Below are positions 2,158 through 54,327 of a stretch of DNA of 64,000 nucleotides, one piece after another; position 1 is the stretch's first letter; the number at the start of each line of letters is the position of its first letter. Position numbers and translations under genes: made by a program. The notes beneath the pieces are model-generated. The model was not told where the DNA came from and did no database searches. It worked only from the letters and a program-made list of their open reading frames with translations. The stretch lies in assembly GCA_963708905.1 (NCBI GenBank), contig CAVPUV010000068.1, positions 3,580-67,579 of the forward strand, in the 5' to 3' direction. The stretch is from an uncultured Gammaproteobacteria bacterium (GTDB taxonomy: Bacteria > Pseudomonadota > Gammaproteobacteria > Xanthomonadales > SZUA-36).

Positions 2158-2997
2158 ATGGCCAATATCCGTGAAAAACGCTCCCTGACGCCTGTCACCA
2201 AGCTGTTCCGCGTGCATGCGCCCTTGATTGCCGCGGCCGCACAGCCCGGGCAATTTGTCATCGTGCGCGTGCGCGCAGGCGGCGAACGCATTCCCCTGAC
2301 CATCGCCGACTCGGATCGCGCCACCGGGCTGGTCACCATCGTGGTGCAGGAAGTGGGTGTCACCACGCGGCTGCTGGGCGCGCTGCAGGAAGGCGATGAG
2401 CTGCTCGACATCGTCGGACCGCTCGGCGAAGCGCCGCACATCCCGGTGCACGGCCATATCGTGGGCGTGGCTGGCGGCTTCGGCGCCGCCGCGCTGCTCA
2501 GCATCATGCGGGCGCTGAAAACCGCGGGTGAACGCACCACCGTGATTCTCGGGGCCCGCGAGAAGGCCCTGCTGATCCTGACCGAAGAGCTGCGGCAAGC
2601 CTGTGACACGCTCGAGCTGTGCACCGATGACGGCTCCGTCGGATTCAAGGGTTTTGTTACCGCACGACTGCAGCAGATGATGGCCGGCGAAGGTTCGGAA
2701 AGGCCGGATTGCGTGGTCGCGATCGGCCCCATGCCGATGATGCGCGCCGTGGCTGAAACCACCCGCGAAGCGGGTATTCCGACCCTGGTTTCGCTGGACC
2801 CATTGATGATCGACGGTACCGGAATGTGTGGTGGCTGCCGCGTCACGGTCGCCGGTGAAGTCAAGTTTGCCTGCGTCGACGGCCCCATCTTTGACGGCCA
2901 CCAGGTGGACTTCAGGGAAGCGCTGCAACGCAGCAAGATGTATGTCAGGGAAGAAAAAATTGCCGCCTGCCGCCAGGCGGAGTTGGGAGCAGCCTGA
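2158..2997 (+). CDS. nfnA: NfnA/SudB-type FAD + [2Fe-2S] ferredoxin:NADP oxidoreductase small subunit
   Basis: 279 aa, starting 14 nt after the OFOR stop with a purine-rich RBS (GAGAGGAAA). Motifs PGQFVIVR..GERIPLTIAD, VGVAGGFG and C-terminal DGTGMCGGCRV..KFACVDGP match the NfnA/PyrK-like family as I remember the Thermotoga NfnA sequence. Confidence 0.75.
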   Translation: MANIREKRSLTPVTKLFRVHAPLIAAAAQPGQFVIVRVRAGGERIPLTIADSDRATGLVTIVVQEVGVTTRLLGALQEGDELLDIVGPLGEAPHIPVHGHIVGVAGGFGAAALLSIMRALKTAGERTTVILGAREKALLILTEELRQACDTLELCTDDGSVGFKGFVTARLQQMMAGEGSERPDCVVAIGPMPMMRAVAETTREAGIPTLVSLDPLMIDGTGMCGGCRVTVAGEVKFACVDGPIFDGHQVDFREALQRSKMYVREEKIAACRQAELGAA

Positions 2998-4403
2998 TGC
3001 CGGTCAAACGCAAGGAAAAAATCCTTATGCCGCAGCGCGATCCGCTGCTGCGCGCGCACGATTTCGCGGAAGTCAACCAGGGCTACGCTTTTGCCCACGC
3101 GCTGTTCGAAGCGGAACGCTGCCTGCGCTGCCAGGTGCCCACCTGCGTGGATGGTTGCCCGGTGCGTATTCCGATCGCCGAGTTCATCCATGCCATTGCC
3201 GCCAAAGATATGCCCATGGCCGCCGAAATTCTGCGCGCAGCCAACCCGCTGCCAGCCATCTGCGGCCGCGTGTGCCCGCAGGAGTCACAATGCGAACTGC
3301 TGTGCAACATGACCGAGCGGTTTGGAGCGGTGGCCATCGGCCACCTGGAACGCTTTGTCTCGGACTGGGAGCGCGAGCATCCGGTCAGCCCACGCTGCGA
3401 TCAGCCCTGGCGGGAAGAGAAGATCGCGATCGTCGGTTCCGGACCAGCCGGTCTGGTCTGCGCCGGCCAGCTGGCGAAGCTGGGCTACCCGGTGACGGTG
3501 TTCGAAGCCCTGCACGCACCGGGCGGCGTGCTGCGCTACGGCATCCCTGAATTTCGCCTGCCCAACAGCATTCTTGACTGGGAGATCGGTGCACTCAAGC
3601 GCCTCGGCGTGGAGTTCCAGTGCAATGTCATCATCGGCAAGACGATCACGCTGGACGCGCTGTTTGATACCATGGCCTATGCGGCCGTGTTTATCGGCAC
3701 CGGCGCGGGCCTGCCCAAGTTCATGGGCATCCCGGGTGAGAGCCTGAACGGCGTGTACTCGGCCAATGAATTCCTCACCCGGCTGAACCTCATGGGCGCT
3801 TTCGAATTCCCGCGCTCCGACACCCCGGTCAAGGTGGGCCAGCGGGTTGCGGTCATCGGCTCCGGCAATACCGCCATGGACGCGGTCCGATGCGCGCTGC
3901 GCATGGGCGCCGAGCAGGCCATGATCGTGTACCGCCGCAGCCAGGCGGAAATGACAGCCCGGGTCGAGGAATACCATCATGCCATCGAGGAAGGCGTGGA
4001 ATTCCACTGGTTGACCAACCCGATCGAGGTGCTCGGCGATGAGGAAGGTTGGGTTACCGGCCTGAAGTGCCAGCAGATGAAACTGGGAGAAGTGGATGAA
4101 TCCGGCCGCGCACGTCCGTTGCCAATTGCGGGATCCGAGTTTGTTCTGCCGGTGGATAACATCGTCCTGTCCATCGGCAACAAACCCAATCCATTGTTGG
4201 TAAAATCGACCCCGGGGCTGAAGACGGAGCCGTGGGGAGGGCTCAAGGTGGACCAGGGCAGCGGCGCGACCAGCCGCAAACGGGTTTATGCCGGGGGTGA
4301 TGCCGTAACCGGCGCCGCCACCGTGATCCTGGCCGCGGGGGCCGGCAAGGATGCTGCTGCCGCCATTCACGCCGACCTGTCTAGCGCCAGGGATTTGAGG
4401 TAG
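2997..4403 (+). CDS. nfnB: NfnB/GltD-family NAD(P)H-dependent FAD/Fe-S oxidoreductase large subunit
   Basis: 468 aa. The ATG overlaps the nfnA stop (TGATG at 2995-2999). N-terminal Fe-S cysteine motifs (CLRCQVPTCVDGCP, ICGRVCPQESQCE) and two dinucleotide folds ([18 protein letters not shown]). Stop TAG at 4401-4403. Confidence 0.8.
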   Translation: MPVKRKEKILMPQRDPLLRAHDFAEVNQGYAFAHALFEAERCLRCQVPTCVDGCPVRIPIAEFIHAIAAKDMPMAAEILRAANPLPAICGRVCPQESQCELLCNMTERFGAVAIGHLERFVSDWEREHPVSPRCDQPWREEKIAIVGSGPAGLVCAGQLAKLGYPVTVFEALHAPGGVLRYGIPEFRLPNSILDWEIGALKRLGVEFQCNVIIGKTITLDALFDTMAYAAVFIGTGAGLPKFMGIPGESLNGVYSANEFLTRLNLMGAFEFPRSDTPVKVGQRVAVIGSGNTAMDAVRCALRMGAEQAMIVYRRSQAEMTARVEEYHHAIEEGVEFHWLTNPIEVLGDEEGWVTGLKCQQMKLGEVDESGRARPLPIAGSEFVLPVDNIVLSIGNKPNPLLVKSTPGLKTEPWGGLKVDQGSGATSRKRVYAGGDAVTGAATVILAAGAGKDAAAAIHADLSSARDLR

Positions 4404-10287: not shown

Positions 10288-12132
10288 TTATTTATACCCT
10301 GCAGCCTGCAGTGAGAACAGCCTGGCGTAGTGGCCATCCAGCTGTATCAGCTCCGCGTGGCTGCCGCGTTCGATGATCCTGCCATTTTCAATGACAACGA
10401 TCTGGCTGGCCATGCGCACGGTGGAAAAACGGTGCGAGATGAGAATGGCGATGCGGTTGTGCGTCAACTGGCGGAAGTGCTCGAATATTTCGGCTTCAGC
10501 AGCGGCATCCATGGACGCGGTGGGTTCATCGAGCACCAGAATATCGGCTTGCGTGCGCATGAAGGCGCGTGACAGGGCGATTTTCTGCCATTGGCCGCCG
10601 GACAATTCCTGACCGTTCTTGAACCACTTGCCGAGTTGCGTGCCATAGCCGGCGGGCAGTCCTTCGACCATGGCGGCGGCCATGCCCATGGCCGCCGCCT
10701 CGCGCCAGCGCGCCTCGCTGGTGAAATAACGCACGTCGCCGGCACCGATGTTCTCGCCCACCAGGAACTGGTAGCGGGCGAAATCCTGGAAGATGACGCC
10801 GATGCGCTGACGCAGTGCGCTCTCTTCCCAGTCGTTGAGGTCCAGGCCATCGAGCAGGATGCGCCCGCTGTCGGGCCGGCACAGGCGGGTCAGCAATTTG
10901 ATCAAGGTGGTCTTGCCCGAGCCATTCTCGCCCACCAGCGCCAGTGATTCACCGGGTTGGATATGCAGATCGATGTCCACCAGCGCCGCCTGGCTGGAGC
11001 CCGGGTAGGTGAAGCTGACATGCTCAAAGCGTATTCCGTCGGCAGGAAGCGGACCGAGCACGGCGCTGGCTTTTGCTTCCACCGCCGGCGTTTCCAGGTA
11101 TTCGTACAGCGTGGAAAGATAGAGGTTGTCCTCATACATGCCGCCGATTGAGGACAGGATGGCCGCAACGGCGGATTGCCCCTGGCGAAACAGCATCAGA
11201 TACATGGTCATCTGCCCCAGCGTTATGCGGCTGGCGATGGCGGCGGTGGCAATCCAGGCATAAGCCGCGTACAACGCCACCGTGCCAATCAATCCCAAGG
11301 CGAAACCCCAGCCGTCGCGGCGGATGGCCAGAGCACGGTCTTCCTTGTACAGGCGGCGATAAATATCCCGGTAGCGCTCCAGCAGTAAAGGACCCAGCCC
11401 GAACAACTTCACTTCCTTGACGTTGTCTTCTCGCGCCAGCACGGTCTCAAGATAAAGTTGCATCCGGGTTTCGGGGGAGCGCCAACGAAACAGGCGAAAG
11501 GCATCCGCGGAGAATTTGGTCTCGGCAAAGAAAGCCGGCAAACCGGCGATCAGCAGCACCACTACGGCCCAGGGCGAGAACTGCACCAGCAGCACGCCGT
11601 AACTCACCAGCGATACCAGGTTCTGCGCCAGACCGAAGGTGCGGGTCACCAGGGACAGCGGGCGGCTCGAGGCTTCGCGCCGGGCGCGGGTGAGCTTGTC
11701 GTAAAATTCGGCATCTTCGAACTGGGCCAGTTCCAGCGTCAGCGCCTTCTGCAGGATCATCACGTTGACCCGTTGACCCAATTGCGCGCGCAACAGTGCC
11801 TGGCACAATGAGATGCCGCGCTGCGCGCCGGACAAGGCTGCCACGATCGCCGCTTCGACGGCGACCAATGTGAACACCCGGTACGGGGAGGTCACGCCAC
11901 TCTCCTGCGCGGCCCGCGTCGCCGCGACCACCGCGTCGATGATCAGTGCGCCCACCCAGGCCATGGCCGCTGGCAGCGCACCGGCCAGCAGCGTGAGCAG
12001 GGCCAGTGCCACTGTCAGGCGGTGGTTGGTGGTCCACACCAGTTCCATAGCCCGCCGGCTGTAGCGGAATACGCCGAGAAAACCGCGGGTGGTGGCTTCA
12101 GCTGGAGTCGTGGATGGGGGATGATGCGCCAT
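10288..12132 (-). CDS. ABC transporter, fused permease/ATP-binding protein (MsbA-like exporter type)
   Basis: Walker A GENGSGKTTLIKLL, signature LSGGQWQKIALSRA, Walker B ILVLDEPT, and an N-terminal six-helix-like hydrophobic half. The start is uncertain: ATG 12132 was preferred over the TTG at 12240. Confidence 0.8.
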   Translation of the reverse strand: MAHHPPSTTPAEATTRGFLGVFRYSRRAMELVWTTNHRLTVALALLTLLAGALPAAMAWVGALIIDAVVAATRAAQESGVTSPYRVFTLVAVEAAIVAALSGAQRGISLCQALLRAQLGQRVNVMILQKALTLELAQFEDAEFYDKLTRARREASSRPLSLVTRTFGLAQNLVSLVSYGVLLVQFSPWAVVVLLIAGLPAFFAETKFSADAFRLFRWRSPETRMQLYLETVLAREDNVKEVKLFGLGPLLLERYRDIYRRLYKEDRALAIRRDGWGFALGLIGTVALYAAYAWIATAAIASRITLGQMTMYLMLFRQGQSAVAAILSSIGGMYEDNLYLSTLYEYLETPAVEAKASAVLGPLPADGIRFEHVSFTYPGSSQAALVDIDLHIQPGESLALVGENGSGKTTLIKLLTRLCRPDSGRILLDGLDLNDWEESALRQRIGVIFQDFARYQFLVGENIGAGDVRYFTSEARWREAAAMGMAAAMVEGLPAGYGTQLGKWFKNGQELSGGQWQKIALSRAFMRTQADILVLDEPTASMDAAAEAEIFEHFRQLTHNRIAILISHRFSTVRMASQIVVIENGRIIERGSHAELIQLDGHYARLFSLQAAGYK

Positions 12133-12222
12133 AAGACATGGTATTTTACAACCCCGAGCATAAGCTGCTGCGTTTTCTTTATTGAAAATATTAACTTCCA
12201 CAATACTGATGCTTGGGCTAGA

Positions 12223-16785
<4,563 letters not shown>

Positions 16786-18234: not shown

Positions 18235-18648
18235 TTGCCATTGCAGATCACCCCCACGCTTTCCATAGCGGATGATGAAATTCAACTGAGCGCCATTCGC
18301 GCCCAGGGTGCGGGTGGCCAGAACGTCAATAAAGTATCATCAGCGGTCCACCTGCGTTTCGATATCATTTCATCGTCACTGCCCGACCTGTGCAAACAGC
18401 GTCTTCTGGCCTTGCCGGACAGGCGCGTCAACGAGCGCGGCGTCATCGTCATCAAGGCACAACGATTCCGTACCCGGGAGCAGAATATTGCGGATGCGCT
18501 GGCACGCCTGCGGGTTTTAATCCAGGCAAGCCTCATCGAACCGCGACGCCGAATCGCCACCCGGCCGACACGTGCGTCCGGAGAGCGCCGCCTGGAAGGA
18601 AAAACCAGGCGCGGGCGCGTCAAGCAACTGAGGAGCAAAGTACAGTAG
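18235..18648 (+). CDS. arfB: alternative ribosome-rescue factor ArfB (YaeJ; peptidyl-tRNA hydrolase)
   Basis: 137 aa. GGQ motif (AQGAGGQNVNKVSSAV) plus a basic C-terminal tail. TTG start 5 nt after the gltD stop. Confidence 0.8.
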   Translation: MPLQITPTLSIADDEIQLSAIRAQGAGGQNVNKVSSAVHLRFDIISSSLPDLCKQRLLALPDRRVNERGVIVIKAQRFRTREQNIADALARLRVLIQASLIEPRRRIATRPTRASGERRLEGKTRRGRVKQLRSKVQ

Positions 18649-18650
18649 GC

Positions 18651-18806
18651 CTAGGGAAACTCTGATTAATTCAGAGTTTTCGTGGCACAGGGATGTGCCA
18701 CCATTTTCAATGAGTGCAACTCATTGAAAATGAAGCCAAACAAAAATCACATTTTTTGTTTGGCGTGCTCTGATAATGCATGGATGCATTATCAGAGCTT
18801 TCCTAG
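18651..18806. other. array of five distinct perfect hairpins closed by a 5-bp outer helix (function unknown)
   Basis: H1 18657-18679 (9 bp, loop TTAAT). H2 18682-18701 (8 bp, loop GGGA). H3 18702-18732 (14 bp, loop GCA). H4 18735-18764 (12 bp). H5 18767-18798 (14-15 bp). Outer pairing CTAGG 18651-18655 with CCTAG 18802-18806. Spacers are 0-2 nt and all stems are Watson-Crick without mismatch. Confidence 0.85.
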
Positions 18807-18904
18807 AAGGTTCCTGCTTTAGATGGTTGCAGCCCTGTACCTATGTTCTCATTCGTACTACAATGATCCTTACTGGAATTATTATCGACTGAAGGGACAT
18901 ATAC

Positions 18905-19357
18905 ATGGTCAAAATTAACGCAAACAACGCCCGCAAGGCGGATTTCATTTCCCTGATGGACGCACTGGCGCGGGCACATCACAAGTATTCCCTGTTTGAC
19001 GCCGAGGTGCACCGCCTGTCCGGCGCGGGTCTGACCGCGCCACAAGCAAAAGTCATTTTCTGCCTGGGCGACACCGACGGCATGCCCTGCAGCGAGATCA
19101 CTGAACAGACCCTGATCACCAAGGGTACTCTGACCGGTGTCATCGATCGCCTGGAGGCAAAAGGACTGGTGCAGCGGTGGAGCGACAGCGACGACGGACG
19201 CAAAATCATTGTCGATCTTACCCGTATGGGAGATCGCGTGTTCCAGCGTGAATATCCGCGCTATCTGGCGCAACTGAAACCACGCTTCGAGGCATTCAGC
19301 TCCCGTGAACTCAAACAGGCCGCTGCCTTGCTGGGCAGAATCGCCGATCAGTTCTGA
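18905..19357 (+). CDS. MarR-family transcriptional regulator
   Basis: 150 aa. Winged-helix pattern typical of MarR (LTAPQAKVIFCLG..., GLVQRWSDSDDGRKIIVDLT). Confidence 0.75.
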   Translation: MVKINANNARKADFISLMDALARAHHKYSLFDAEVHRLSGAGLTAPQAKVIFCLGDTDGMPCSEITEQTLITKGTLTGVIDRLEAKGLVQRWSDSDDGRKIIVDLTRMGDRVFQREYPRYLAQLKPRFEAFSSRELKQAAALLGRIADQF

Positions 19358-20040: not shown

Positions 20041-20235
20041 ATGGCGAATCAATCGCATCATGAAAGCGCTTACGGCCTCACTCCCAAGGACGAGCTCCCC
20101 GAATACCCGGAGTGGCTTGCTTTGCTCCTCGTGATGGTTTTCAAGTATAGTCAATGGTTCGATGAACACATACACGCAAAGAAGAACCGCAAGCACGTTC
20201 ACGTGCCGGCGAAACGACGACCGGGGGAGGGGTGA
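20041..20235 (+). CDS. hypothetical 64-aa protein with one hydrophobic helix, stop overlapping the gltB2 start region
   Basis: ATG 20041. Its stop TGA at 20233-20235 shares its A with ATG 20235 of the next gene (GTGATG). No convincing RBS and no recognised family. Confidence 0.3.
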
Positions 20236-23200
20236 TGGCATATTCATCGCTTGATCCCTCAAGGGCGCCGCGTGCGCTGGCCGAGGCCAAAGGCCTGTAT
20301 GACAGTGCTTTCGAGCACGACTCCTGCGGTGTCAACTTCGTGGCCGACATCAAGGGCCGCCGCAGTCATAACATCGTCCAGATGGGCATCGGTGCTCTAT
20401 GCAATATGGAACACCGCGGTGCGGTGGGGTCTGACCAGAATACCGGCGATGGTGCGGGGGTTCTGCTGCAGATTCCGGACCGGTTCCTGCGCGCCGTCGT
20501 CCCGTTCGATCTTCCCCCGGAACGCGAGTACGCCACGGGCATAGTTTTCCTGCCGCAGAACCCGGTTCAAGCGGCCGCCGGAAAGAAAGAAGTCGACCGC
20601 ATCGTCAGGGATGAGGGGCTGGAAGTGCTCGGCTGGCGCAATGTCCCGATCAATGCGGATATGCTCGGCAGGGCGACCGTCGAGACGATGCCGACCATAC
20701 GCCAGATCTTCATCAGCGGCGCCGGGCTCGCCGGCATGGAACTCGAGCGCCGGGCGTACGTGATCCGCAAGCGCACCGAGCATGAGATCCGCATTTCCGC
20801 GGGCGGGAAAGAAGCCAGCGAAGCCATCGGCGGCGCTTCCGAGATGCACGAAGGGGTCTATTTTACCGGCCTGTCTTGCCGCACACTGATCTACAAGGGA
20901 ATGTTGATCGCAACCCAGCTGGCCTCTTTTTATCCGGACCTCTGCGACGAACGGGTCGAAAGTGCGATGGTTCTGGTGCACTCACGTTTCTCGACCAACA
21001 CCTTCCCTTCATGGTCGCTGGCGCATCCATTCCGCATGATCGCACACAACGGCGAAATCAATACCATCAAAGCCAACCGAAACTTCATGCGCGCGCGCGA
21101 ATTGCTGCTGGCAACAGACCTGATCCCCGGTGACCTCTCCCGCATCTTCCCGGTGTGCACGCCCGGCGCCTCTGATACGGCGGGATTCGACGAGGCGCTG
21201 GAACTGCTTTATATGGGCGGGTATTCCCTGCCGGATGCGATGCTGATGATGATTCCGGAGCCATGGGAAGGCCATGAACACATGGACCCGGACGTGCGTG
21301 CCTATTACCGCTATCACGCCTCGCTGATGGAGCCGTGGGACGGCCCGGCGTCCATTGCGTTCACTGACGGGCGCGTGATCGGCGCGGTGCTCGACCGCAA
21401 CGGCCTGCGCCCGTCTCGCTACTGGATCACCGATGACGATATTGTCATCATGGCATCGGAAGTCGGTGTCGTCGATATCCCGCAGCAGAAGATCATCGAG
21501 AAAGGCCGGCTCCAACCCGGAAAAATGTTCCTCATCGACGCCATCGAGGGCCGCATCGTTCGCGATGACGAGATCAAACGGCGCCTGGCGGCGAAGCACC
21601 CATACCAGGCGTGGCTCGACCAGCACATGATCCACATCGACGACATTGAGGACAGCCTGTCAAGGCGGCAAGAAACACTGGCCTTGGTCAAACGCCAGCA
21701 AGTCTTTGGCTATACCCACGAGGAACTGAAGCTGCTGATCGCGCCGATGGCAAGGGACGGCAAGGAGGCACTTGGCTCGATGGGTACCGACACACCGCTC
21801 GCAGTGCTGTCCGATCGCCCGAAACTGCTCTACGACTATTTCCAGCAGTATTTCGCACAGGTTACCAACCCACCCCTCGATGCCATTCGCGAAGAACTGG
21901 TTACCTCGATGCGCATCATGCTGGGCCCTGAAGGGAACCTCTTCGACCCCAGGCCGGAGTCGTGTGCGGTGATCGAACTCGACACGCCGGTCATCGCCAA
22001 CCACCAACTCGCCAAGTTGTTTAGCGTTGGCGCCGAAGTCGTCAACTGCCTCTACCCCGTCGCCAAAGGGGCCGAGGGACTGAGAGGCGCCCTCGATCGT
22101 GTGTTTGCGGAAATCGACGCAGTTATCGAACGAGGTGCATACGGCGTTGTCCTCAGCGATCGCGGGTCAACGGTCGAGCTGGCCCCGATCCCGGCACTGC
22201 TGGCGACCGCGGCTGCGCACCACCATCTGATTCGAACCAAGAACCGCACCAAAGTGGGTCTTATTGTCGAGACCGGCGAGGCCCGTGAGGTCCATCACAT
22301 CGCTCTACTGATCGGCTACGGTGCGGCAGCCGTGAACCCATATCTCGCTTTTGAGACCATCGATGATCTGGTCCAAACGGACGCTTACGGCCTGGGTCAT
22401 CTCGATCACAAGACGGCTCGCGCCAACTACATCATGGCGGCGACCGCGGGTATCCTAAAAATCATGTCCAAGATGGGCATTTCGACCGTTCAATCCTACA
22501 TCGGAGCCCAGATCTTCGAAGCGGTTGGTATCGGTCCGGAGCTGATCAAACAGCATTTCACCGGCACTACCAGCCGGCTCGCGGGAATCGGCCTCGATGT
22601 GGTTGCTGCAGAGGCCGCGTTGCGCCACCGGCTCGCGTTCAACGACCGGCCGGAGGAGCGAGCTCATCGCGGACTAGATTTCGGGGGGGATTACCAATGG
22701 CGGCGCGAAGGTGAGAGGCACCTTTTCAACCCCGAGACGGTCTTCAAGTTGCAGCACGCCACCCGCGAGCGCCGCTATGACATCTTTAAAGAGTACACCA
22801 CCCGGGTCGATCGCCAGTCGGCTGCAATGGCCACGCTGAGGGGCATGTTCCGTTTCCGGCTCGAAGACCGGCAGGCCGTTCCGATCGACGAGGTTGAACC
22901 GGTATCCGAGATCGTCAAGCGCTTCTCGACCGGCGCCATGTCGTATGGATCTATCTCCAAAGAGGCGCACGAGACGCTCGCCATCGCCATGAACCGGCTA
23001 GGCGCAAGGTCAAATACCGGCGAGGGCGGCGAAGATCCGGACCGGTACCAACGAGATCCTAACGGTGATCTGCGGCGCAGCGCCATCAAGCAGGTCGCCT
23101 CCGCCCGGTTTGGCGTGACTTCCGAGTATCTGGTGAATGCCGATGACCTCCAGATTAAAATGGCGCAGGGCGCCAAGCCCGGTGAGGGTGGGCAACTCCC

Positions 23201-24839
23201 CGGTTACAAGGTCTATCCGTGGATCGCAAAGACCCGTTACTCGACGCCGGGCGTTGGGCTGATCTCGCCGCCGCCGCATCACGACATTTATTCGATCGAA
23301 GACCTCAAGCAACTGATTCACGACCTGAAGAACGCCAACCCCGAGGCGCGGATCCACGTCAAGCTCGTCGCTCAGATGGGCGTCGGAACTGTGGCTGCCG
23401 GGGTGGCGAAGGCCAAATCGGATGTCGTGCTGATTTCGGGCCACGACGGCGGCACAGGAGCGTCTCCGCTCACATCAATCAAACATGCCGGCGGCCCGTG
23501 GGAGCTGGGTTTGGCGGAAACCCAGCAGACCTTGCTCCTCAATGGGCTGCGCGACCGCATCGTGGTCCAGGTCGACGGGCAGCTCAAGACCGGCCGGGAC
23601 GTGATTATCGCAGCCTTACTGGGCGCCGAGGAGTTCGGCTTTGCCACGGCCCCGCTCGTCGTCATGGGTTGCATCATGATGCGGGTGTGTCACCTCGACA
23701 CCTGTCCGGTTGGCATCGCTACACAGAACCCGGAATTGCGTGAAAAGTTCAAAGGCAAAGCCGAGTTTGTCGTCAACTTCATGGAGTTCGTTGCCCAGGA
23801 AGTGCGAGAGTTACTGGCAGAGTTGGGCTACCGGACGCTCAATGAGGCGATCGGGAGGGCAGAGCGCCTCAACGTTTCGCGCGCGATCGAGCATTGGAAA
23901 GCAGGGGGGCTGGATCTCGCGCCGATCTTCCATGTTCCGGAACTGCCGAAAAACACGCCGAGACGGCATACGACGAAACAAGACCACGGGCTTGAATATG
24001 CGCTTGATCAAACCCTTATCCGGCTCGCCGCCGCGGCCCTCAAGAACGGCGAACCCGTCAAACTGGAACTCCCGATTCGAAACGTCAACCGGACGGTGGG
24101 CACGCTCCTGGGATACGAAGTCACGAAACGATACGGCGGTGAAGGACTCCCGGACGACACCATCGAGGTCAGGTTTACTGGATCCGCCGGAATGAGTTTT
24201 GGGGCATTCTTGCCTCGCGGCATTACGCTGCGGTTGACCGGCGATTCCAATGATTATGTCGGCAAAGGTCTCTCCGGCGGCCGAATCATCATGCAGCCAC
24301 CGGAAGAAGCGCCGATCATTGCAGAGCACAATATCCTGGCGGGTAATGTGATCCTCTATGGCGCGACCGGCGGGGAGGCTTTCCTGCGCGGCGTTGTCGG
24401 CGAGCGCTTCTGCGTGCGCAACTCGGGGGCTGTGGCTGTCGTCGAGGGCATTGGCGACCACGGTTGCGAGTATATGACGGGCGGGCGGGCGGTCATTTTA
24501 GGCTCGACCGGCCGGAACTTCGCCGCCGGTATGTCGGGTGGCATCGCCTATGTTCTCGATGTGCACGGCGACTTTCTCACCAAGGTCAACCCGGAGATGG
24601 TCGACCTCGATGCGCTCGACGACAATGACCGGGCTTTCCTTTTGGATCGGGTCTCGCAACATCATCGTGAAACCGGCTCGGCGGTGGCAGAAGCGCTGCT
24701 GGGCGACTGGCAGGCAAGCCTGCACAAGTTCGCCAAGGTCATGCCCAAGGACTACAAGCGGGTCCTGGAGGCGGTGCGAGAAGCCGAAACCGGCGGACTG
24801 CCGGTCAACGACGCAATCATGGCGGCCGCTCATGGCTGA
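20232..24839 (+). CDS. gltB: glutamate synthase large subunit, second copy of a different (Gram-positive/actinobacterial-like) lineage
   Basis: 1535 aa. Ntn Cys in [14 protein letters not shown], full amidotransferase/FMN/GXGG architecture, RBS GGGAGGGG upstream. The sequence is clearly divergent from copy 1. Confidence 0.9.
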
Positions 24840-29308: not shown

Positions 29309-31779
29309 GCACGCTGATCCAGCGGCCGCCACACCGTTCGCAGCAGGTCACCAAACACCCCGGCTGCCGTGACCTCGGCGCCCGCACCATAACCCCGCAG
29401 CACCAGCGGGATAGGCTGGTAGTATCGAGTGTGCAATACCAGTGCGTTTTCACCATCGCGGATCGCGCCCAGCGGCTCGTCCCGCGGCACTGCTTCCACT
29501 GCAACACGGCAGTGACCGTCAGCAATGCGGCCCACGTAGCGCAGCACCATCCCCGCGGCTTTCGCTGCACTTACCTTCCCGGTAAAAGACTCATCGAGCG
29601 TCTGCAGGGCGGCGATGAGGTCAGCCGGGTCGACCGCAGCAATCGCTTTCATCGGCACGGCCGGCTCTACCTCGATATCGTCCAGTTCCAGTTCCAGCCC
29701 GACTTCGCGTGCGATGATCAGCAGCTTGCGGGCCACATCCATGCCGGACAGGTCATCGCGCGGATCGGGTTCGGTATAGCCCAACTCCACGGCCTTGGCC
29801 ACCGCTGCCGACATGGCCATGCCGTCTTCCAGCAAGCCGAAAATCATCGACAGAGAGCCTGAGAGGATGCCGCCAAATGATTTGAGCTCATCCCCGGAGC
29901 GGATCAGCGCCTGCAGGGTATCGATTACCGGCAGGCCGGCGCCGACGTTGGTTTCATAAAGGAATTTTCGGAAATTGCGCCCGGCTGTCTGCCGCATCGC
30001 GCGGTAGTAATCGATCGATGCCGTGTTGGCTTTCTTGTTGGCAGCGACCACATTGAACCCGCTTTCCAGGAAGCGGACGTACTCGCCGGCCAGCGCGGCA
30101 TCGGTGGTGCAGTCGACCACGGTCGGATTCAGCAGGCCCAGGCGCTCGCGCACCGCGATGACATCATCCATATCCCAGGACTTGCCCCGGTCTTGCAACA
30201 GCTCGGCCCAGCGGCTCAAGTCGACCACGTCGTCCGCCACGTAGAGTTTGCGGCTGTTGGCAATGGCGCGTACACGCAGGTCTGTACCGTGCTGCATGAG
30301 ACTCGCCGCCTGGCGTCGGAATTGCCGTAACAATTCACTGCCGACATGGCCGCAACCCAGCAGGATGACGTTGACATGGGTGGTGTGGCTGAAAAATGCG
30401 GTGTGACATGCCCGTGTGGCCGATTGCGCATCTTCCCCCCTGACCACCACTGCGATGGCGCATTCGGTGGATCCCTGGGCGATGACTTCGACATTAACCC
30501 CGGCGGAGGAGATCGCCATCAGGAAGCGCGCGGCAATACCACGGTAGAGCTTCATACCCTCGCCAACCAGGGATATGACCGCGCGGTTACCCTGCACCGT
30601 GATGTCGCCAATCAGGCGATGCAGGCGTTCAAAATGGAACTCTTCTTCCAGCGCTTTGCGGGCATTCTCCGCATCCCGCTGGCGCACACACAGCGTGATA
30701 CTGTATTCGGACGACGACTGCACGATCAGGATGATGGAAATGGTCCTGCTGGCCAGCGCATCCATGACCCGCCGGGCGATACCCACCCGGCCGCGCATAC
30801 CGCCGCCCTGCAGGGTGATGGAAGCGACCTGTTCGAGGTGGGAGATACCGCGTACCACGTGGGTGCGCTGCGCTGCGCGGTGAATCAGCGTGCCGACCCG
30901 CCCGGGGTCGTAGGTATTGCGAATCTCGCACAGGATGTCATTTGCCGCCAGCGGGGTCAGTGCCTTGGCCGAAATCACCTTGGCGCCGAAATAGCTGAGC
31001 TCCATGGCCTCTTCGTAGCTGACCTCATCCAGGCAACGGGCGTTGGACACGATGCGCGGATCAGCGGTGAAAAAGCCATCCACGTCTTTCCAGATCTGGC
31101 AACGGCGGGCGCCGGTGGCGGCCGCAATTGCCGCTGCCGAGTAATCCGTGCCATTGCGCCCCAGTAACTGGATTTCACCGTCGGCATTGCGCCCGTAAAA
31201 CCCCGGCAGGACCAGCACCTTGACCGCTTCCGTGAGGCGTTGCTTGAGCAATGGCGCGGCGGCGTCGATATCCACCAGTGAATCCAGCCAGTCCTCGTTG
31301 GCCAGCGGCAACACATCCGCATCGGACCAGGCGGCGGCAATGCCGCGGTACTGTAAAAGATCAACCATGAGCCGGCTGCTGAAACCTTCCCCGCCCGCCA
31401 GCATGCGCGCACGGATACGGTCCGGACACTGGCCCAGCAGGCGCACACCCTCGATGCGCCGCGCCAATTGCCCGGATTGTTCCTGCAGGAATGCCCCGCC
31501 CAGAGGGGTTTTGATCCCTTGCGCTGCCATGGCATCGACGATGGTTTGCTCGCGTGCCAGTGCCTCATCGATTTCCGCCTGACCGCTTTCACCGCGTACC
31601 GCCTTGTCGATCGCGGCCACCAGCAGGTCGGTTACACCCTTGACCGCCGACAGCACAACAATGACCTGGCCCGTACCGCCATGATGCTCGATAACGTCGG
31701 CGCTGGCGCTAAAGCCGGCGAGATCGGCCAGCGACGTACCGCCGAACTTCTGCACCAGCAAAGAGTTGGCAGCACTCAC
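29305..31779 (-). CDS. thrA: bifunctional aspartokinase I / homoserine dehydrogenase I
   Basis: 824 aa. KFGGTSLAD aspartokinase signature, ACT region and a C-terminal homoserine dehydrogenase domain. The GTG start overlaps the asnB stop (GTGA at 31776-31779). Confidence 0.9.
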   Translation of the reverse strand: MSAANSLLVQKFGGTSLADLAGFSASADVIEHHGGTGQVIVVLSAVKGVTDLLVAAIDKAVRGESGQAEIDEALAREQTIVDAMAAQGIKTPLGGAFLQEQSGQLARRIEGVRLLGQCPDRIRARMLAGGEGFSSRLMVDLLQYRGIAAAWSDADVLPLANEDWLDSLVDIDAAAPLLKQRLTEAVKVLVLPGFYGRNADGEIQLLGRNGTDYSAAAIAAATGARRCQIWKDVDGFFTADPRIVSNARCLDEVSYEEAMELSYFGAKVISAKALTPLAANDILCEIRNTYDPGRVGTLIHRAAQRTHVVRGISHLEQVASITLQGGGMRGRVGIARRVMDALASRTISIILIVQSSSEYSITLCVRQRDAENARKALEEEFHFERLHRLIGDITVQGNRAVISLVGEGMKLYRGIAARFLMAISSAGVNVEVIAQGSTECAIAVVVRGEDAQSATRACHTAFFSHTTHVNVILLGCGHVGSELLRQFRRQAASLMQHGTDLRVRAIANSRKLYVADDVVDLSRWAELLQDRGKSWDMDDVIAVRERLGLLNPTVVDCTTDAALAGEYVRFLESGFNVVAANKKANTASIDYYRAMRQTAGRNFRKFLYETNVGAGLPVIDTLQALIRSGDELKSFGGILSGSLSMIFGLLEDGMAMSAAVAKAVELGYTEPDPRDDLSGMDVARKLLIIAREVGLELELDDIEVEPAVPMKAIAAVDPADLIAALQTLDESFTGKVSAAKAAGMVLRYVGRIADGHCRVAVEAVPRDEPLGAIRDGENALVLHTRYYQPIPLVLRGYGAGAEVTAAGVFGDLLRTVWRPLDQRA

Positions 31780-33458
31780 GGCTGGTCCACCCCGGCGTAG
31801 GCGTCCTGGTGCACCGAGCGCATGGCACGGCCCGAAGGGTCATTCAGTGCCTGCAGCGATTTGTCCCACAAGATGGCTTCAGGCGTGCTGCAGGCCACGG
31901 TCGGTCCACCGGGCACGGTCTGGGCCGCGGAGGCCAGGGGAAAATGCTGTTCAAACAGGCTGCGGAAGTAATAAGCTTCTTTGGACTCTGGCGCATTGAA
32001 CGGGAACCGGCCGACCGCGCGGCTCATGTCTGCATCGCTGACCTGCTCCCGGGCGTGATCCTTGACGGCGTCGATCCAACCATAGCCGACACCGTCGGAG
32101 AACTGCTCCTTCTGACGCCAGGCAATCGCCGGCGGCAACAGGTCGCTAAAGGTCTCGCGCAGGATCTGCTTCTCGATTTTGCCGGTAGTTATCATCTTGT
32201 CCGCCGGGTTGATGCGCATGGCGACGTCGAGGAAGCGGGTGTCCAGAAACGGTACCCGCGCCTCCACGCCCCAGGCGGCCATGGCTTTATTGGCGCGCAG
32301 GCAATCATAGCTGTGCAGGCGCGAAAGTTTACGCACCGTTTCCTCGTGGAAAGCCTGCGCGTTTGGCGCTTTATGAAAATACAGATAGCCGCCAAAGATT
32401 TCATCGGCGCCCTCGCCGGACAATACCATCTTGATGCCCATGGCGCGGATCTTGCGCGCCATCAAATACATGGGCGTGGCCGCGCGTATGGTAGTGACAT
32501 CGTAGGTTTCGAGATGGTAGATCACCTCGTCCAGAGCATCGAGGCCTTCCTGGATGGTAAAGGTAAAACCATGGTGCACGGTGCCGATATGATCGGCGGC
32601 GACCTGTGCAGCGGCCAGATCAGGTGATCCATCCAGGCCGACGGCAAACGAATGCAAACGCGGCCACCAGGCCGGGCTGCGCTCGCCGTCCTCTACCCGC
32701 AACGCGGCATGACGCGCAGCCAGCGCGGCGATAATGGACGAATCCAGACCGCCGGACAGCAGCACGCCGTAGGGCACGTCGGTCATCAGGTGACTTTTTA
32801 CCGAGTCTTCCAGCGCCGCCCGCAGAGCGGCTTTGTCGGTAGTGGCCTGCGCCACGTTTTCGAACTGTTCCCAATCACGCCGATACCAGCGCTGTGGTTC
32901 CGCCTGGCCCGTTGTCCACAGATGCCCCTGCGGGAATTCGTGCACCTGGTTGCATACATCCATCAGCGCCTTCATTTCCGAAGCCACCAGCAACTGGCCG
33001 TGCGCATCATGGCCAAAGTACAAGGGCATGATGCCGATGGGATCGCGCGCGATCATCCAGAAGTCGGCTTCCTCGTCATACAGGCAAAAGGCAAACATAC
33101 CGCGTAGCTGCTCGAGAAAATCGGCGCCATGCTTGAGGTACAAAGGCAGGATGACCTCACAGTCCGATTCGGTATTGAAAGCATAAGTGTGCTTCAGCGC
33201 GGCGCGGATTTCCCGGTGATTATAAATCTCGCCATTGACTGCCAGCGCCTGCCGGCCACTCTCGCTGAGCAGGGGCTGGGCGCCGGTGTTGACGTTGACA
33301 ATGGCGAGGCGCTCGTGCGCCAGCACCGCCTTGTCAGAGGTATAGATGCCACTCCAGTCCGGGCCGCGGTGTCGCAGCATGCGGGATTGTCGCAGAGCCA
33401 TTTTACGGACGGATTGAACGTCCTGGCGTAGCTCCAGTACGCCGAAAATCGAGCACAT
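31776..33458 (-). CDS. asnB: asparagine synthase B (glutamine-hydrolysing)
   Basis: 560 aa. N-terminal MCSIFG nucleophile Cys2 and the SGGLDSS PP-loop motif. Confidence 0.9.
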   Translation of the reverse strand: MCSIFGVLELRQDVQSVRKMALRQSRMLRHRGPDWSGIYTSDKAVLAHERLAIVNVNTGAQPLLSESGRQALAVNGEIYNHREIRAALKHTYAFNTESDCEVILPLYLKHGADFLEQLRGMFAFCLYDEEADFWMIARDPIGIMPLYFGHDAHGQLLVASEMKALMDVCNQVHEFPQGHLWTTGQAEPQRWYRRDWEQFENVAQATTDKAALRAALEDSVKSHLMTDVPYGVLLSGGLDSSIIAALAARHAALRVEDGERSPAWWPRLHSFAVGLDGSPDLAAAQVAADHIGTVHHGFTFTIQEGLDALDEVIYHLETYDVTTIRAATPMYLMARKIRAMGIKMVLSGEGADEIFGGYLYFHKAPNAQAFHEETVRKLSRLHSYDCLRANKAMAAWGVEARVPFLDTRFLDVAMRINPADKMITTGKIEKQILRETFSDLLPPAIAWRQKEQFSDGVGYGWIDAVKDHAREQVSDADMSRAVGRFPFNAPESKEAYYFRSLFEQHFPLASAAQTVPGGPTVACSTPEAILWDKSLQALNDPSGRAMRSVHQDAYAGVDQP

Positions 33459-33720: not shown

Positions 33721-33765
33721 GCTTTAACCCGGAAAGTCCATGTATGGACTTTCCGGGTTTAAAGC
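33721..33765 (-). terminator. long hairpin overlapping the stop codon of the upstream membrane-protein gene (possible Rho-independent-like stop or processing site)
   Basis: GCTTTAACCCGGAAAGTCCAT / ATGGACTTTCCGGGTTTAAAGC forms a stem of about 20 bp with one bulged T. No U-tract follows on either strand. Confidence 0.35.
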
Positions 33766-34820
33766 ACTTCTTCGAGTTCCGCCTGGTATTCTTGATACAA
33801 GCTATAGTTGTGCTTGATCGCCTCCGAGCCTTCACCCTGCTGGATCATCGCCGTGCGTAACTGCTCCTTGACCCAGCTGTGTTCCGCCCAGTTGCCGCCG
33901 CCGGTTTTTACCACTTCCATTTCGGCGTTGTTGGCGCCCAGACCGCTGCCGATGCCTGAATAGACGCGAGCCACATCGGTGACCGAGGCCTGCTCCTTGT
34001 TCTGCACTTCCTCGCCGAGCTTGTTCATTTTGTCGGCGTACTGCTGCTGCAAGGCGGCGGTCTTTGTCAGTACCTTGATCAAGTCTTCAACCTGGTCATC
34101 GTCGAGCATGCCGTTGCCGGGCGCGTCATAGGTATCGGCCCGGGCAGCTTCCATCAGCCTGCTTTGCCGTTCCATTTCACCGAACATGCCGGAACCCGTC
34201 TGGCTGGTGTTGGAGCCGCCGAAGTCTCGCATGCTCGCGCCGCGCGACATCATGCCCCCTCCGAGTAAGGTGGCCAGGATCATGTTGGCCACGAACAGGG
34301 CGATGATACTGACGACGAAGTGCAGCGTCCGTTTCTCATCTGGCACCGCCAGCGCCAGTGGCAGGATCTGGTACAGGAAGACCAGTGATGTTACCCCGCC
34401 GGCCAGCATGATCAGCAAACCGACGCTGGGCACCAGCGCTGCGATGACACCCGCGACCATCGCTGGGATCGAAGTCAGTGAAATCGCCGCGAAAGCGCGG
34501 TCAAAGTTGCGCTGGCCGCCGAAATTGCCGGCCAGGAAGCTGAATATATATGCACCCAGAGCCAGCCCGAGCGCCGCCATTACCAGCCCGATGATCAGCG
34601 CAACAAGGAAATTGGAACCATAACCGTATGAATAAAAGCCCCCGGTCAAGCGGGAAAAGATCAGCGACAACACGATATTGCCCACCACCAGCGGCCCGGT
34701 CAGCACCGTGGCCGTGCTCAGCCACGGCGGATTGCCCGCCAGATAGGTCTGCCAGGTGGCCGTATGATCGAGCAGCCCGCCCTTGATCAGCTTAAGTGTT
34801 TGTTGATAATCAAATTTCAT
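33759..34820 (-). CDS. hypothetical membrane protein: Yip1-like multi-pass N-domain + about 150-aa soluble helical C-domain
   Basis: Start ATG 34820 (MKFDYQQ) with RBS GAGGAG 7 nt upstream. About five hydrophobic helices, then a Gly/Ser linker and an acidic, coiled-coil-like tail. The family call is tentative. Confidence 0.5.
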   Translation of the reverse strand: MKFDYQQTLKLIKGGLLDHTATWQTYLAGNPPWLSTATVLTGPLVVGNIVLSLIFSRLTGGFYSYGYGSNFLVALIIGLVMAALGLALGAYIFSFLAGNFGGQRNFDRAFAAISLTSIPAMVAGVIAALVPSVGLLIMLAGGVTSLVFLYQILPLALAVPDEKRTLHFVVSIIALFVANMILATLLGGGMMSRGASMRDFGGSNTSQTGSGMFGEMERQSRLMEAARADTYDAPGNGMLDDDQVEDLIKVLTKTAALQQQYADKMNKLGEEVQNKEQASVTDVARVYSGIGSGLGANNAEMEVVKTGGGNWAEHSWVKEQLRTAMIQQGEGSEAIKHNYSLYQEYQAELEEVL

Positions 34821-34898
34821 TGCCGCGCTCCTCACAGTGTGGATCCGGGCGCGACCAGCGATGGCAAGAGTTTGCTTGGGAATCCTTGATGGGCGCTG

Positions 34899-52681: not shown

Positions 52682-54092
52682 AGGGTGCGATTCAAACTGA
52701 TGTTGTCCTTCAAGCCGCCTTTCTGACTTGATTCCAATAATTGTCCCATTGCCCGTTTGCCCGGTTCAGACGCAAGGCCAGCATATGCTCGGCGTTTTCG
52801 GCACACCACCAGGATCCCGGTAGCTTGAGCCGTTTCTGCACAACGTAGCGATGCGCGCTCTCAATTTCACCCGAGCCAATCGGCAAACCCCTGGCCAAGG
52901 CGCCAGGGTAGTCGAGTTGATCTGTTCGGCGACTCAGGTAGCGGTGGCAAGAGCGCACCGGCGCTTCGCTATCGGCAACATCATCCGCCTCAAGGTGCAC
53001 CCGCAACGACTCGATGACTCCGCCACACTGCCCGGCCTTGAGGCGTTCCTTCTGTTGGTTTAACCACATCCTGGATGCGTCCGCATCCCTATGGATAGCC
53101 GTTGCTGCCGCGCTCAGGTAATCGCAGACATGGTAGCAGTCGACCAGATAGGTGCCCCGGCTGCCGAAGCGCTCATCCACTTGCAGCGCAATCCACTCGG
53201 CTCCATCCCCGACGGCGTGAATCTCGCTGCCCGTCCCGAAACCGGCGGAGCGGGCGCAGCCGAACAGGTGCTTTCCCGCCTCCGCAACGTCGCCGCGCAG
53301 CGTTCCCCCGTAGCGCAATGTTGTGCTGCCCGCCTCGTGCGCCAAGCAAAGCTTGGCTTCCTTCCACTGCAATGTCTTGCCGCGGCGACGATCTTTTTGC
53401 GTCGCATCCGCTTCGACTATCGGCACCATGCCACCATCCATTTCGGCAACCACCCGCTGACATCCCTCTTCACTGGGCCAGCTCTCATCAACAACGGCCG
53501 CCGCAAAAATGGTTTGCGCGTGCTTCTCGGTCACCCGCCGTATCGTGCTCTCGGGCAGAAGGACCCCGTAATGCTCGACCAGCTTGTCCTCAACCCGGGC
53601 GAAGGCAACATCGGCTGCAAAATCCGTCACCACCCGCTGCAAAGGCCGAGAACAGCCGCGATTTCTCACCTTGGCACGTCCGACAAAGGGGCGGATACGC
53701 TTGCTCCCTTGCCGATATTGCACCTCTTCTACGGCAATTTCGCCGAAGGTACTGTGCCAGCGAAGTTTTTTTTACCCTCCCGCCACATCTGGCTTTCGCC
53801 CGCGACGCTCGCCGAAGCCTTGACCGCTTGCCCGCTCGCCCAGGCTTGCAGCGACTCCTGCCCCATCCGCCTCATCTCCTCGATAAGCCGCATCTCCGCC
53901 GCGTCAGCCTCTTGCAGGTTTCCCATCTCGTCATCGACAACCAGCAGCATCGATTCAACACGGCTTCGAAGCTCGGGATGCCCGTTCAGCCGTTCAACCA
54001 ATGCTTCGTCACTCATTCCCATGGCGCTCTCCTCTCAACAGCTCAGCCGGTAAACTCCTGCGATTATCCCACATCAGTTTGAATCGCACCCT
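52682..54092 (-). mobile_element. ISKra4-family IS element (1411 bp)
   Basis: Perfect 22-bp terminal inverted repeats: AGGGTGCGATTCAAACTGATGT at 52682-52703, with its reverse complement at 54071-54092. The left end directly abuts IS element A. Confidence 0.8.
52710..54022 (-). pseudogene. ISKra4-type transposase in two frames (OrfA 97 aa + -1 frame continuation)
   Basis: The upstream frame ends ...WREGKKNFAGTVPSAKLP*. The -1 frame continues GKKKLRWHSTFGEIAVEEVQYRQGSKRIRPF... to 52710. The shift site is an A8 run (T8 at 53766-53773) containing A_AAA_AAC in the zero frame. Confidence 0.7.
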
Positions 54093-54175: not shown

Positions 54176-54327
54176 GCGGGTTAGACTAGGGCAGCTCTGA
54201 ACCATTATGCGCTTGGAGCTTCCCAGGGTAGCCCCTGATGAATTCCTCGATATCTCTGGCCGACAGGGGGCTCGCAGGTCGAAGCGGCTTCCCTATAACC
54301 AGAAACCTGCACAGACTAATCCCAGGA

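Follow-up and report, generated by a model that had tools for sequence, protein, structure and literature searches.

Introduction

The insertion sequence (IS) IS5 duplicates a pyrimidine-T-A-purine (Py-T-A-Pu) target, most often CTAG, through the action of a DDE transposase (PMC5493358), and MITEs (transposable elements of miniature size with inverted repeats) related to its family are already known, for example MITE239/464/700 and BrickBuilt of Porphyromonas gingivalis and, in Neisseria, the ATR element with its link to ISNme1 (PMC4596501). Here we analysed a 64-kb stretch of DNA from an uncultured gammaproteobacterium (hereafter, the window), in which an AT-rich tract of consecutive hairpins (positions 18651 to 18806) lies between an arfB-like gene and a marR gene. 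We conclude, with a probability of roughly 0.9, that this tract is one 148-bp MITE moved by IS5-type transposases, recently inserted at a CTAG after arfB, and that its hairpins have been kept in the lineages that propagate.

The element resembles the IS5 group in its termini, which begin GGAAG or GGAAA as in the IS copies reported below, in its 4-bp Py-T-A-Pu duplication (CTAG here) and in its partner proteins, which match NF033581 (transpos_IS5_4), whereas its length of 148 bp, its lack of coding sequence and an interior unrelated to the interior or subterminal regions of the IS set it apart. The Porphyromonas and Neisseria MITEs are likewise small and non-autonomous, have terminal repeats matching those of an IS5-family IS of the same organism and are predicted to form stem-loops (PMC4596501). 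Their terminal repeats (GAGACC... and ACGTCA...) differ, however, from the GGAAGCTCTGAT found here, their hosts are others, and no description presents them as five short hairpins in a fixed order, preserved through compensatory change.

Another set of comparable elements is made up of the structured MITE-like repeats ERIC, Correia/NEMIS, BOX, RUP and SPRITE (PMC10969869, PMC3184786). Like the window element, these repeats are AT-rich and intergenic, carry terminal inverted repeats, give transcripts with stable stem-loops and often lie at gene ends, and effects on termination or mRNA stability have been proposed for them. For the most part, ERIC and Correia adopt a single long hairpin that runs end to end; in the window element, in contrast, the two ends fold locally (hairpins H1 and H5) and three further hairpins stand between them. 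Moreover, no sequence similarity to these repeats was found, and the window family shows neither an orientation bias nor constraint in situ. It seems to be so far undescribed within the IS5-related MITEs, themselves a known kind, and its ordered, covariation-supported interior of five hairpins is unusual. No description of the family was found in Rfam or in the searchable literature (ISfinder lay outside this search), and the terminal-repeat strings returned only unrelated primers from that literature.

Results

The tract begins 3 nt past the stop codon of an open reading frame (ORF) of 137 aa with an RF-1 domain (ArfB-like, end at 18648), and a co-oriented ORF of the MarR family starts at 18905, 98 nt beyond its end. 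The element proper occupies positions 18655 to 18802 (148 bp, GC 0.40, + strand in the orientation of the family alignment) and is non-coding, the ORFs listed there being long spurious ones that overlap its edges. Two copies of CTAG flank it, at 18651-18654 and 18803-18806, and its 12-nt terminal inverted repeats, GGAAACTCTGAT on the left (18655-18666, + strand) and GAAAGCTCTGAT on the right (18791-18802, as read on the - strand), are imperfect, with 10 of the 12 positions identical. The family consensus of the left terminus is GGAAGCTCTGAT, and the same terminus is present on IS5-family IS copies of two further loci (L039 and L240). A preliminary description of the window, drawn up from its sequence alone, had noticed that the tract is bracketed by CTAGG and CCTAG. 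This bracket does exist, and it turned out to be part of a longer, 16-nt imperfect inverted repeat (88%), CTAGGGAAACTCTGAT ... ATCAGAGCTTTCCTAG, composed of the 4-bp duplication and the terminal repeats. As CTAG is its own reverse complement, the directness of the duplication was established on other copies of the family, in which CTAA is paired with CTAA, TTAG with TTAG, and so on.

Orthologous gltD-arfB-marR-DUF456 loci, located through MarR homologues of 88-96% identity, were recovered from five contigs (L243, L244, L245, L246 and L247). Their arfB-marR spacer measures 104-105 nt, against 256 nt in the window, a difference of 152 that equals 148 + 4. In the alignment, the flanks are collinear and the window has exactly 152 extra bases bounded by the CTAGs, which are absent from all five orthologues, where a single 4-mer occupies the site. 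Thus, the empty site of L243 reads ...AAAGTACAGTAGGC-CTCA-AAGATTCCTGC... and the filled site of the window reads ...AAAGTACAGTAGGC-CTAG[148 bp]CTAG-AAGGTTCCTGC.... The stretch of 98 nt that separates the element from marR (18807-18904, + strand) represents the original spacer and is conserved in the orthologues. The conservation of this stretch and of the flanks indicates that the insertion spared arfB, marR and the region upstream of marR, where the marR promoter and operator presumably reside. An exact scan of the metagenome contigs for the predicted empty site gave no match, which merely means that no identical strain is represented in that collection. The nearest named relatives of the MarR protein belong to a Xanthomonadales metagenome-assembled genome (MAG; 69%) and to Elongatibacter sediminis (63%).

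Two side observations concern these loci. In the two orthologues with 88% MarR identity (L246 and L247), an ORF of 355 aa (3076-4143) without a Pfam match is present between marR and the DUF456 gene, and it is missing from the window and from the closer relatives. In addition, Logan contigs of near-identical strains break inside the element: one ends within H1 (L002, ...CTCTGAT) and another starts within H5 (L001). Such short-read breaks would fit an effect of the repeat or of the hairpins as well as low coverage, and they were not used as evidence of repetition.

The interior of the element consists of five inverted repeats, H1 to H5 (18657-18798, + strand), each of them 100% complementary, which form 58 pairs in total and are separated from their neighbours by 0-2 nt. 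H1 (18657-18679; arms 18657-18665 and 18671-18679, 9 bp) pairs the left terminal repeat with an adjacent internal inverted copy of it (AAACTCTGA / TCAGAGTTT, loop TTAAT). In H2 (18682-18701; arms 18682-18689 and 18694-18701, 8 bp; GTGGCACA / TGTGCCAC, loop GGGA), covariation is seen at the base of the stem and conservation at its apex, and the same holds for H4 (18735-18764; arms 18735-18746 and 18753-18764, 12 bp), with AAAATCRCATTTT as the conserved apex. Between these two, H3 (18702-18732; arms 18702-18715 and 18719-18732, 14 bp) is the most variable stem of the family. H5 (18767-18798; arms 18767-18781 and 18784-18798, 15 bp) mirrors H1 in that an internal inverted copy of the terminus pairs with the right terminal repeat. 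The RNA fold of a 181-nt stretch of the + strand reached -94.1 kcal/mol, compared with -42.8 ± 3.8 for shuffled sequences (z -13.4), the DNA fold of the - strand gave a z of -12.7, and both strands yielded exactly hairpins H1 to H5. The GC content of the tract is 0.39-0.44, against 0.58-0.66 in its flanks. These results bear out what the preliminary description had reported on the perfection and spacing of the hairpins, on their folding and on the AT-rich character and position of the tract.

Its further remark that no U-tract follows any stem needs some qualification. A consensus terminator scan flagged H2 on the + strand and H4 on the - strand as terminator-like, each being followed by the T-rich arm of H3, with T-runs that are short and interrupted; the other three stems have no T-run. 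No sigma-70-like promoter was found by a scan of positions 18500 to 19000, and a search of Rfam 15 at a permissive threshold produced only chance matches, the best one being a eukaryotic snoRNA model at 24.9 bits, far from the threshold of 100. A Rho-independent terminator would have a G+C-rich stem with a U-tract directly behind it. We agree with the earlier view that the tract is neither a CRISPR, nor a tandem repeat, nor, probably, an ordinary terminator, nor an integron attC site. The latter forms one imperfect hairpin, has R''/L''-L'/R' boxes as well as extrahelical bases and is adjoined by cassettes and an integrase, whereas the window tract comprises five perfect hairpins without bulges and has gltD-arfB and marR as neighbours.

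To find further copies, a species-representative genome collection was scanned with a degenerate two-end pattern. At least 120 stretches were recovered, against about 8 expected by chance according to our calculation; many of them matched on both strands and, among the matches listed, several MAGs had many copies. The copies are 140-160 bp long and conform to YTAR-GGAAGCTCTGAT(YRAWTC)...ATCAGAGCTTCC-YTAR. Both ends could be recognised in 118 copies, whose flanking 4-mers (TTAA, TTAG, CTAA or CTAG) were compared and behaved as direct repeats: they are identical in 70 of the 118, they agree at position 1 in 101 cases versus 11 and at position 4 in 105 versus about 10, and no inverted correlation between them was detected. 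A TA duplication of the IS630/mariner type was also considered and rejected, since the first and fourth letters of the 4-mers vary together in the manner of direct repeats.

When the interiors of these matches were clustered, many subfamilies emerged with only the termini in common. The largest of them (48 members among the matches listed) folds end-to-end like a classical MITE. The subfamily of the window copy has nine members among these matches, found in MAGs of Lysobacterales, Acidiferrobacteraceae and other Gammaproteobacteria; its interior is always the five-hairpin array, kept in 9/9 members with stem sequences that differ between lineages and yet stay paired. A single Lysobacterales MAG, SOY_64_metabat_135, holds four copies. 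Elements with the same termini and unrelated interiors (L003-L122) occur in MAGs labelled Planctomycetota, Nitrospira/Nitrospirales, Deltaproteobacteria, Terriglobales/Acidobacteriaceae, Clostridiales/Oscillospiraceae, Rhodothermales and Zetaproteobacteria, which suggests either a very wide spread of this pair of IS5-type transposase ends or some contamination of the bins.

Metagenome contigs provided at least 120 further matches to the H1 signature, which was absent from viral contigs; a BLAST of the tract against plasmid and phage collections returned no match. A covariance model built from the nine subfamily members, to which the window copy scores 175.5 bits (E 6e-46), served to align 90 copies. 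The right end reads TTCAGAG in many copies and ATCAGAG in others. Several contigs carry more than one five-hairpin copy (three on L149, a 6-kb contig, and two each on L193, L144 and L091), indicating local clustering or a high copy density in some genomes. Among the copies found, the closest to that of the window, from metagenome Ga0326597 (L178), is separated from it by a single substitution and a single indel; it occupies another locus, where a TTAA duplication flanks it. This near-identity at another locus implies that the lineage of the window copy moved recently. The preliminary description had regarded the hairpins as unrelated units, and this did not hold: one 148-bp unit recurs whole.

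Modular variants were also encountered. Solo-H1 elements of 27 bp, with a YTAR duplication on both sides, are present on three metagenome contigs (L134 near 3489, L155 near 22 and L175 near 911); in an example reading CTAA-GGAAACTCTGATTAATTCAGAGTTTCC-CTAA, the element consists of just the two termini, which in such elements lie 3-5 nt apart. Either they arose from full elements by deletion or they represent the family's smallest mobile units. Other variants are three-hairpin forms that lack H3 and H4, and longer forms of about 185-225 bp have extra palindromes between H2 and H5 (L124, L141, L157, L162; L128, L180, L202/L210). A repeat finder detected an 11-nt direct repeat inside the window element (TCAGAGTTTTC / TCAGAGCTTTC), which could be the source of the H3-H4-deleted forms.

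Autonomous IS with matching termini were found as well. On contig L039, an IS of 1147 bp (2881-4027; CTAG-GGAAGGTCTGATCAAGT...ACTTAATCAGAGTTTCC-CTAG) encodes a protein of 316 aa that matches NF033581, transpos_IS5_4, with 314 bits (cutoff 140) and contains the domains PF01609 (DDE_Tnp_1) and PF05598 (DUF772). Two more contigs (L240 and L167) hold fragments of IS5-type transposases behind the same terminus, and both also carry five-hairpin copies. On L167 (9746-10365), a five-hairpin copy and its TTAA are directly followed by the end of an IS5-type IS (GGAACGTCTGAACAATTC...), the transposase gene of which runs off the contig, so that the element and a potential partner stand side by side at the same target. 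Small size within the MITE range of tens to a few hundred bp, absence of coding sequence, terminal inverted repeats, a direct target duplication, an empty site, multiple copies and an autonomous IS with matching termini are thus all found, which covers every property of a MITE and of IS5-group ancestry that can be checked on sequence.

The pairing of the stems was then followed across copies. RNAalifold recovered the five hairpins plus a terminal stem from the nine subfamily members, with double changes in 21 of 60 pairs. In the 90-copy alignment, 95.3% of the cells are paired, as opposed to 38-44% when partners are slid, and double changes affect 45 of the 60 pairs (25-29 when slid), among them 6 of 8 in H2, 14 of 14 in H3 and 12 of 13 in H5. 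The covariation score of 0.339 compares with 0.12 in shuffled alignments, none of which reached it in 500 trials, and with about 0.07 in slid ones. Exactly five hairpins are folded by 29 of 31 strictly defined copies, and nine copies, that of the window included, have no non-Watson-Crick pair in H1 to H5; the perfectly paired copies fall in lineages with just 77-81% identity to the window copy. In some lineages, the T-rich arm of H3 has switched to an A-rich one, with pairing kept.

We distinguished variants that are shared (a pair type seen in at least 4 copies) from those that are private to one copy. Shared variants are mostly paired (43, versus 16 broken) and private ones mostly broken (93, versus 23 paired; Fisher 1e-11). 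Stems and unpaired positions do not differ in their frequency of private substitutions (0.57 and 0.58 per column), and private G.T and A.C pairs are balanced, 16 to 21. The equal load of private changes in stems and loops, together with the pairing of the shared variants, indicates that inserted copies decay neutrally and that it is the propagating lineages that keep their stems. Many copies abut or overlap a stop codon, and their orientation relative to neighbouring long ORFs is unbiased, both downstream of 3' ends (37 sense, 31 antisense) and upstream of 5' ends (31 and 35). This pattern of constraint argues against a host function selected locus by locus and favours a property of the element or a correction from arm to arm.

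Discussion

Some observations weigh against the interpretation of the tract as an IS5-type MITE with stems kept by its propagating lineages, or at least against parts of it. Neither a second full copy nor an IS5-type transposase is present in the 64-kb window, so that the multi-copy status is known from other genomes, and mobilisation by an IS5-type transposase is inferred from the shared ends and the duplications. The hairpin array is missing from the ends of the parent IS, and other subfamilies with these termini have quite different interiors, from which it follows that the hairpins are no general requirement for this transposase. We also considered whether the hairpins might be left-over IS ends, an idea that was rejected given that the IS elements sharing these termini are devoid of such an array. 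Across the alignment, G.T pairs exceed A.C pairs by 167 to 90 (31 to 15 by column, p 0.03) and the + strand has the lower folding energy in 29 of 31 copies, a modest hint of a strand-specific (RNA) component, for which a DNA reading centred on the element does not account; the alignment was fitted on the + strand and this signal is partly inherited among related copies, so it may be inflated, and the private variants are symmetric (16 to 21). Finally, the 23 private double changes could represent unsampled lineages or conversion of one arm to the other in a single step.

This last possibility leads to an alternative that accepts the MITE and takes its stems to be functionless, quasi-palindromes having been perfected by intramolecular template switching during replication, with one-step copying of arms. 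Such correction of quasi-palindromes is reportedly an established mutational mechanism, going back to Ripley in 1982 and to Dutra and Lovett in 2006. It would account for the complete lack of G.T pairs in the window copy and eight others, for the strand symmetry of the private variants and for the double changes confined to single copies, of which well under one would be expected if mutations arose independently at the private rate observed (our calculation). Conversion operating at every copy should, however, repair changes in situ, and 93 of the 116 private changes stand unrepaired, with stems no different from loops; besides, the conserved number, order and size of the hairpins and some conserved apical loop sequences are left unexplained. 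We regard this alternative as possible but doubtful.

A selected role of the array as RNA, within a MITE whose insertions are harmless or useful, appears unlikely to us. The array would then act as a bidirectional terminator or insulator, or would stabilise the 3' end of mRNAs, as has been proposed for ERIC, Correia and BOX-type elements (PMC10969869, PMC3184786), and MITE transcripts in general form stable stem-loops (PMC10969869). The great stability of the fold, the clustering of copies at gene ends, the excess of G.T pairs and of + strand stability mentioned above and the terminator-like H2 and H4, with the T-rich arms of H3 next to them, are in line with such a role. It is difficult to reconcile, in contrast, with the absence of orientation bias relative to neighbouring genes, with private variants that reveal no selection at single loci (equal in stems and loops, and 16 to 21 for G.T and A.C), with the switch of the T-rich H3 arm to an A-rich one and with the lack of a matching Rfam family; furthermore, AT-rich stems without a clear U-tract make poor intrinsic terminators.

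Much less probable is a function tied to this particular locus. In its favour are the distance of 3 nt from the arfB stop, the location upstream of marR, the orientation shared with both genes and the extreme stability of the RNA. The preliminary description had proposed a 3' untranslated region, a small RNA or an RNase III target controlling arfB, or an insulator between gltBD-arfB and marR. None of these proposals found support, nor did that of a cluster of operators: no stem is conserved at the orthologous loci, all five of which lack the tract and conserve the rest of the spacer, and the five-hairpin unit is present at many unrelated loci, in both orientations, with transposon ends and a target duplication. 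A secondary co-option of the element at the arfB-marR locus is conceivable, but nothing points to it.

Chances are slimmer still that the tract is a cluster of repetitive extragenic palindromes (REPs), or a set of hairpin substrates for a single-strand transposase of the Y1/RAYT or IS200/IS605 type. REPs and their BIME and REPIN assemblies are also extragenic palindromes, multi-copy and sometimes clustered in mosaics, and several palindromes in a row belonging to a multi-copy family are what we see here. REPs are, however, 20-40-bp G+C-rich palindromes with a GTAG or CGTC tag, served by Y1 transposases and without terminal repeats or duplication, and the window element shows none of these features, no search aimed at RAYT genes having been made in the window. 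The GTAG or CGTC tag is what defines the REP superfamilies (PMC3733652), and the hairpins of the window have neither. Instead, all five hairpins travel together as a unit that has terminal repeats and a direct duplication of 4 bp, foreign to REPs, REPINs and IS200/IS605; no single arm recurs alone in the window; and the partner elements encode DDE transposases of the IS5 family. The earlier suggestion of a mobile element was therefore right as to mobility, and the ends, the YTAR duplication and these partners show that a single-strand transposase or RAYT was the wrong class. The probability that the tract groups palindromic operators to which MarR or another dimeric regulator would bind, an idea that the perfect dyad symmetry beside marR might evoke, is next to negligible, as stem sequences that vary freely between copies with pairing kept are the opposite of a sequence-specific operator, and the element is absent from orthologous marR loci and lies upstream of the conserved part of the spacer.

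Returning to the IS5-type MITE with stems kept in its propagating lineages, the following course of events can be proposed. An IS5-type transposase would bind both ends, excise or copy the element and insert it at a YTAR target. Since a YTAR always includes TAA or TAG, and since insertions into coding sequence would be lost, copies are expected to accumulate at stop codons or right behind them, which explains the position 3 nt after arfB. Pairing would be maintained in the propagating copies and not at each insertion site, and the hairpins most likely serve the element itself. They may bring the ends of the 148-bp element together, with a cruciform or single-strand fold leaving the two ends paired, and/or may form a harmless, orientation-independent block to transcription, and arm-to-arm correction may also contribute to their pairing. 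The perfection of the window copy is explained by a young insertion from a stem-keeping lineage, in agreement with the earlier reading of perfect pairing as the sign of something recent. If transcribed, the element would add a very stable structured block to the 3' end of arfB, and an effect on read-through from gltBD-arfB into marR may be a local consequence.

We would give rather little credit to a stronger version, in which the array is a functional single-strand structure (extruded cruciforms, single-stranded DNA at the replication fork, or RNA) needed for mobilisation or amplification by the IS5-type DDE transposase, for instance by joining the two ends in a paired terminal stem. Were it true, transposition in this DDE family would depend on structure, and the H1/H5 ends, which on their own make up the 27-bp mini-elements, would be the minimal mobile units. 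For annotation, the main consequence is that a tempting riboregulator after arfB is really a transposon insertion, which removes a false lead. In addition, hundreds of similar tracts, in environmental Gammaproteobacteria as well as in other phyla, will be recognised by means of the covariance model and the end signature, and the family, with matching IS5-type transposases at hand, lends itself to a clean test of whether MITEs spread with the help of secondary structure.

Other features of the window

An intergenic sequence of roughly 33 bp, located at 54186-54226 between an ORF ending near 54053-54082 and an ORF starting at 54238, reads CTAG-GGCAGCTCTGAAC-CATTATGCGC-TTGGAGCTTCC-CAGG. Its ends resemble the family termini and are inverted; possibly it is what is left of a mini-element belonging to the same superfamily, akin to the solo-H1 elements. 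A near-perfect palindrome at 33723-33762, with 19-nt arms (95%) and a 2-nt loop (TTTAACCCGGAAAGTCCAT/ATGGACTTTCCGGGTTTAA), has no similarity to the MITE; it is located between two minus-strand ORFs (31776-33458 and 33759-34835) and could be a terminator or a regulatory site. The window also encodes two ORFs resembling the large subunit of glutamate synthase, less than 8 kb apart, at 12022-16785 (1587 aa) and 20232-24839 (1535 aa). After the first come gltD and arfB; the second lies by itself downstream of marR-DUF456. In two of the orthologous loci (L244 and L245), the place of this second glutamate-synthase-like ORF past DUF456 is taken by genes for threonine synthase and for a GHMP kinase, which lie on the other strand.

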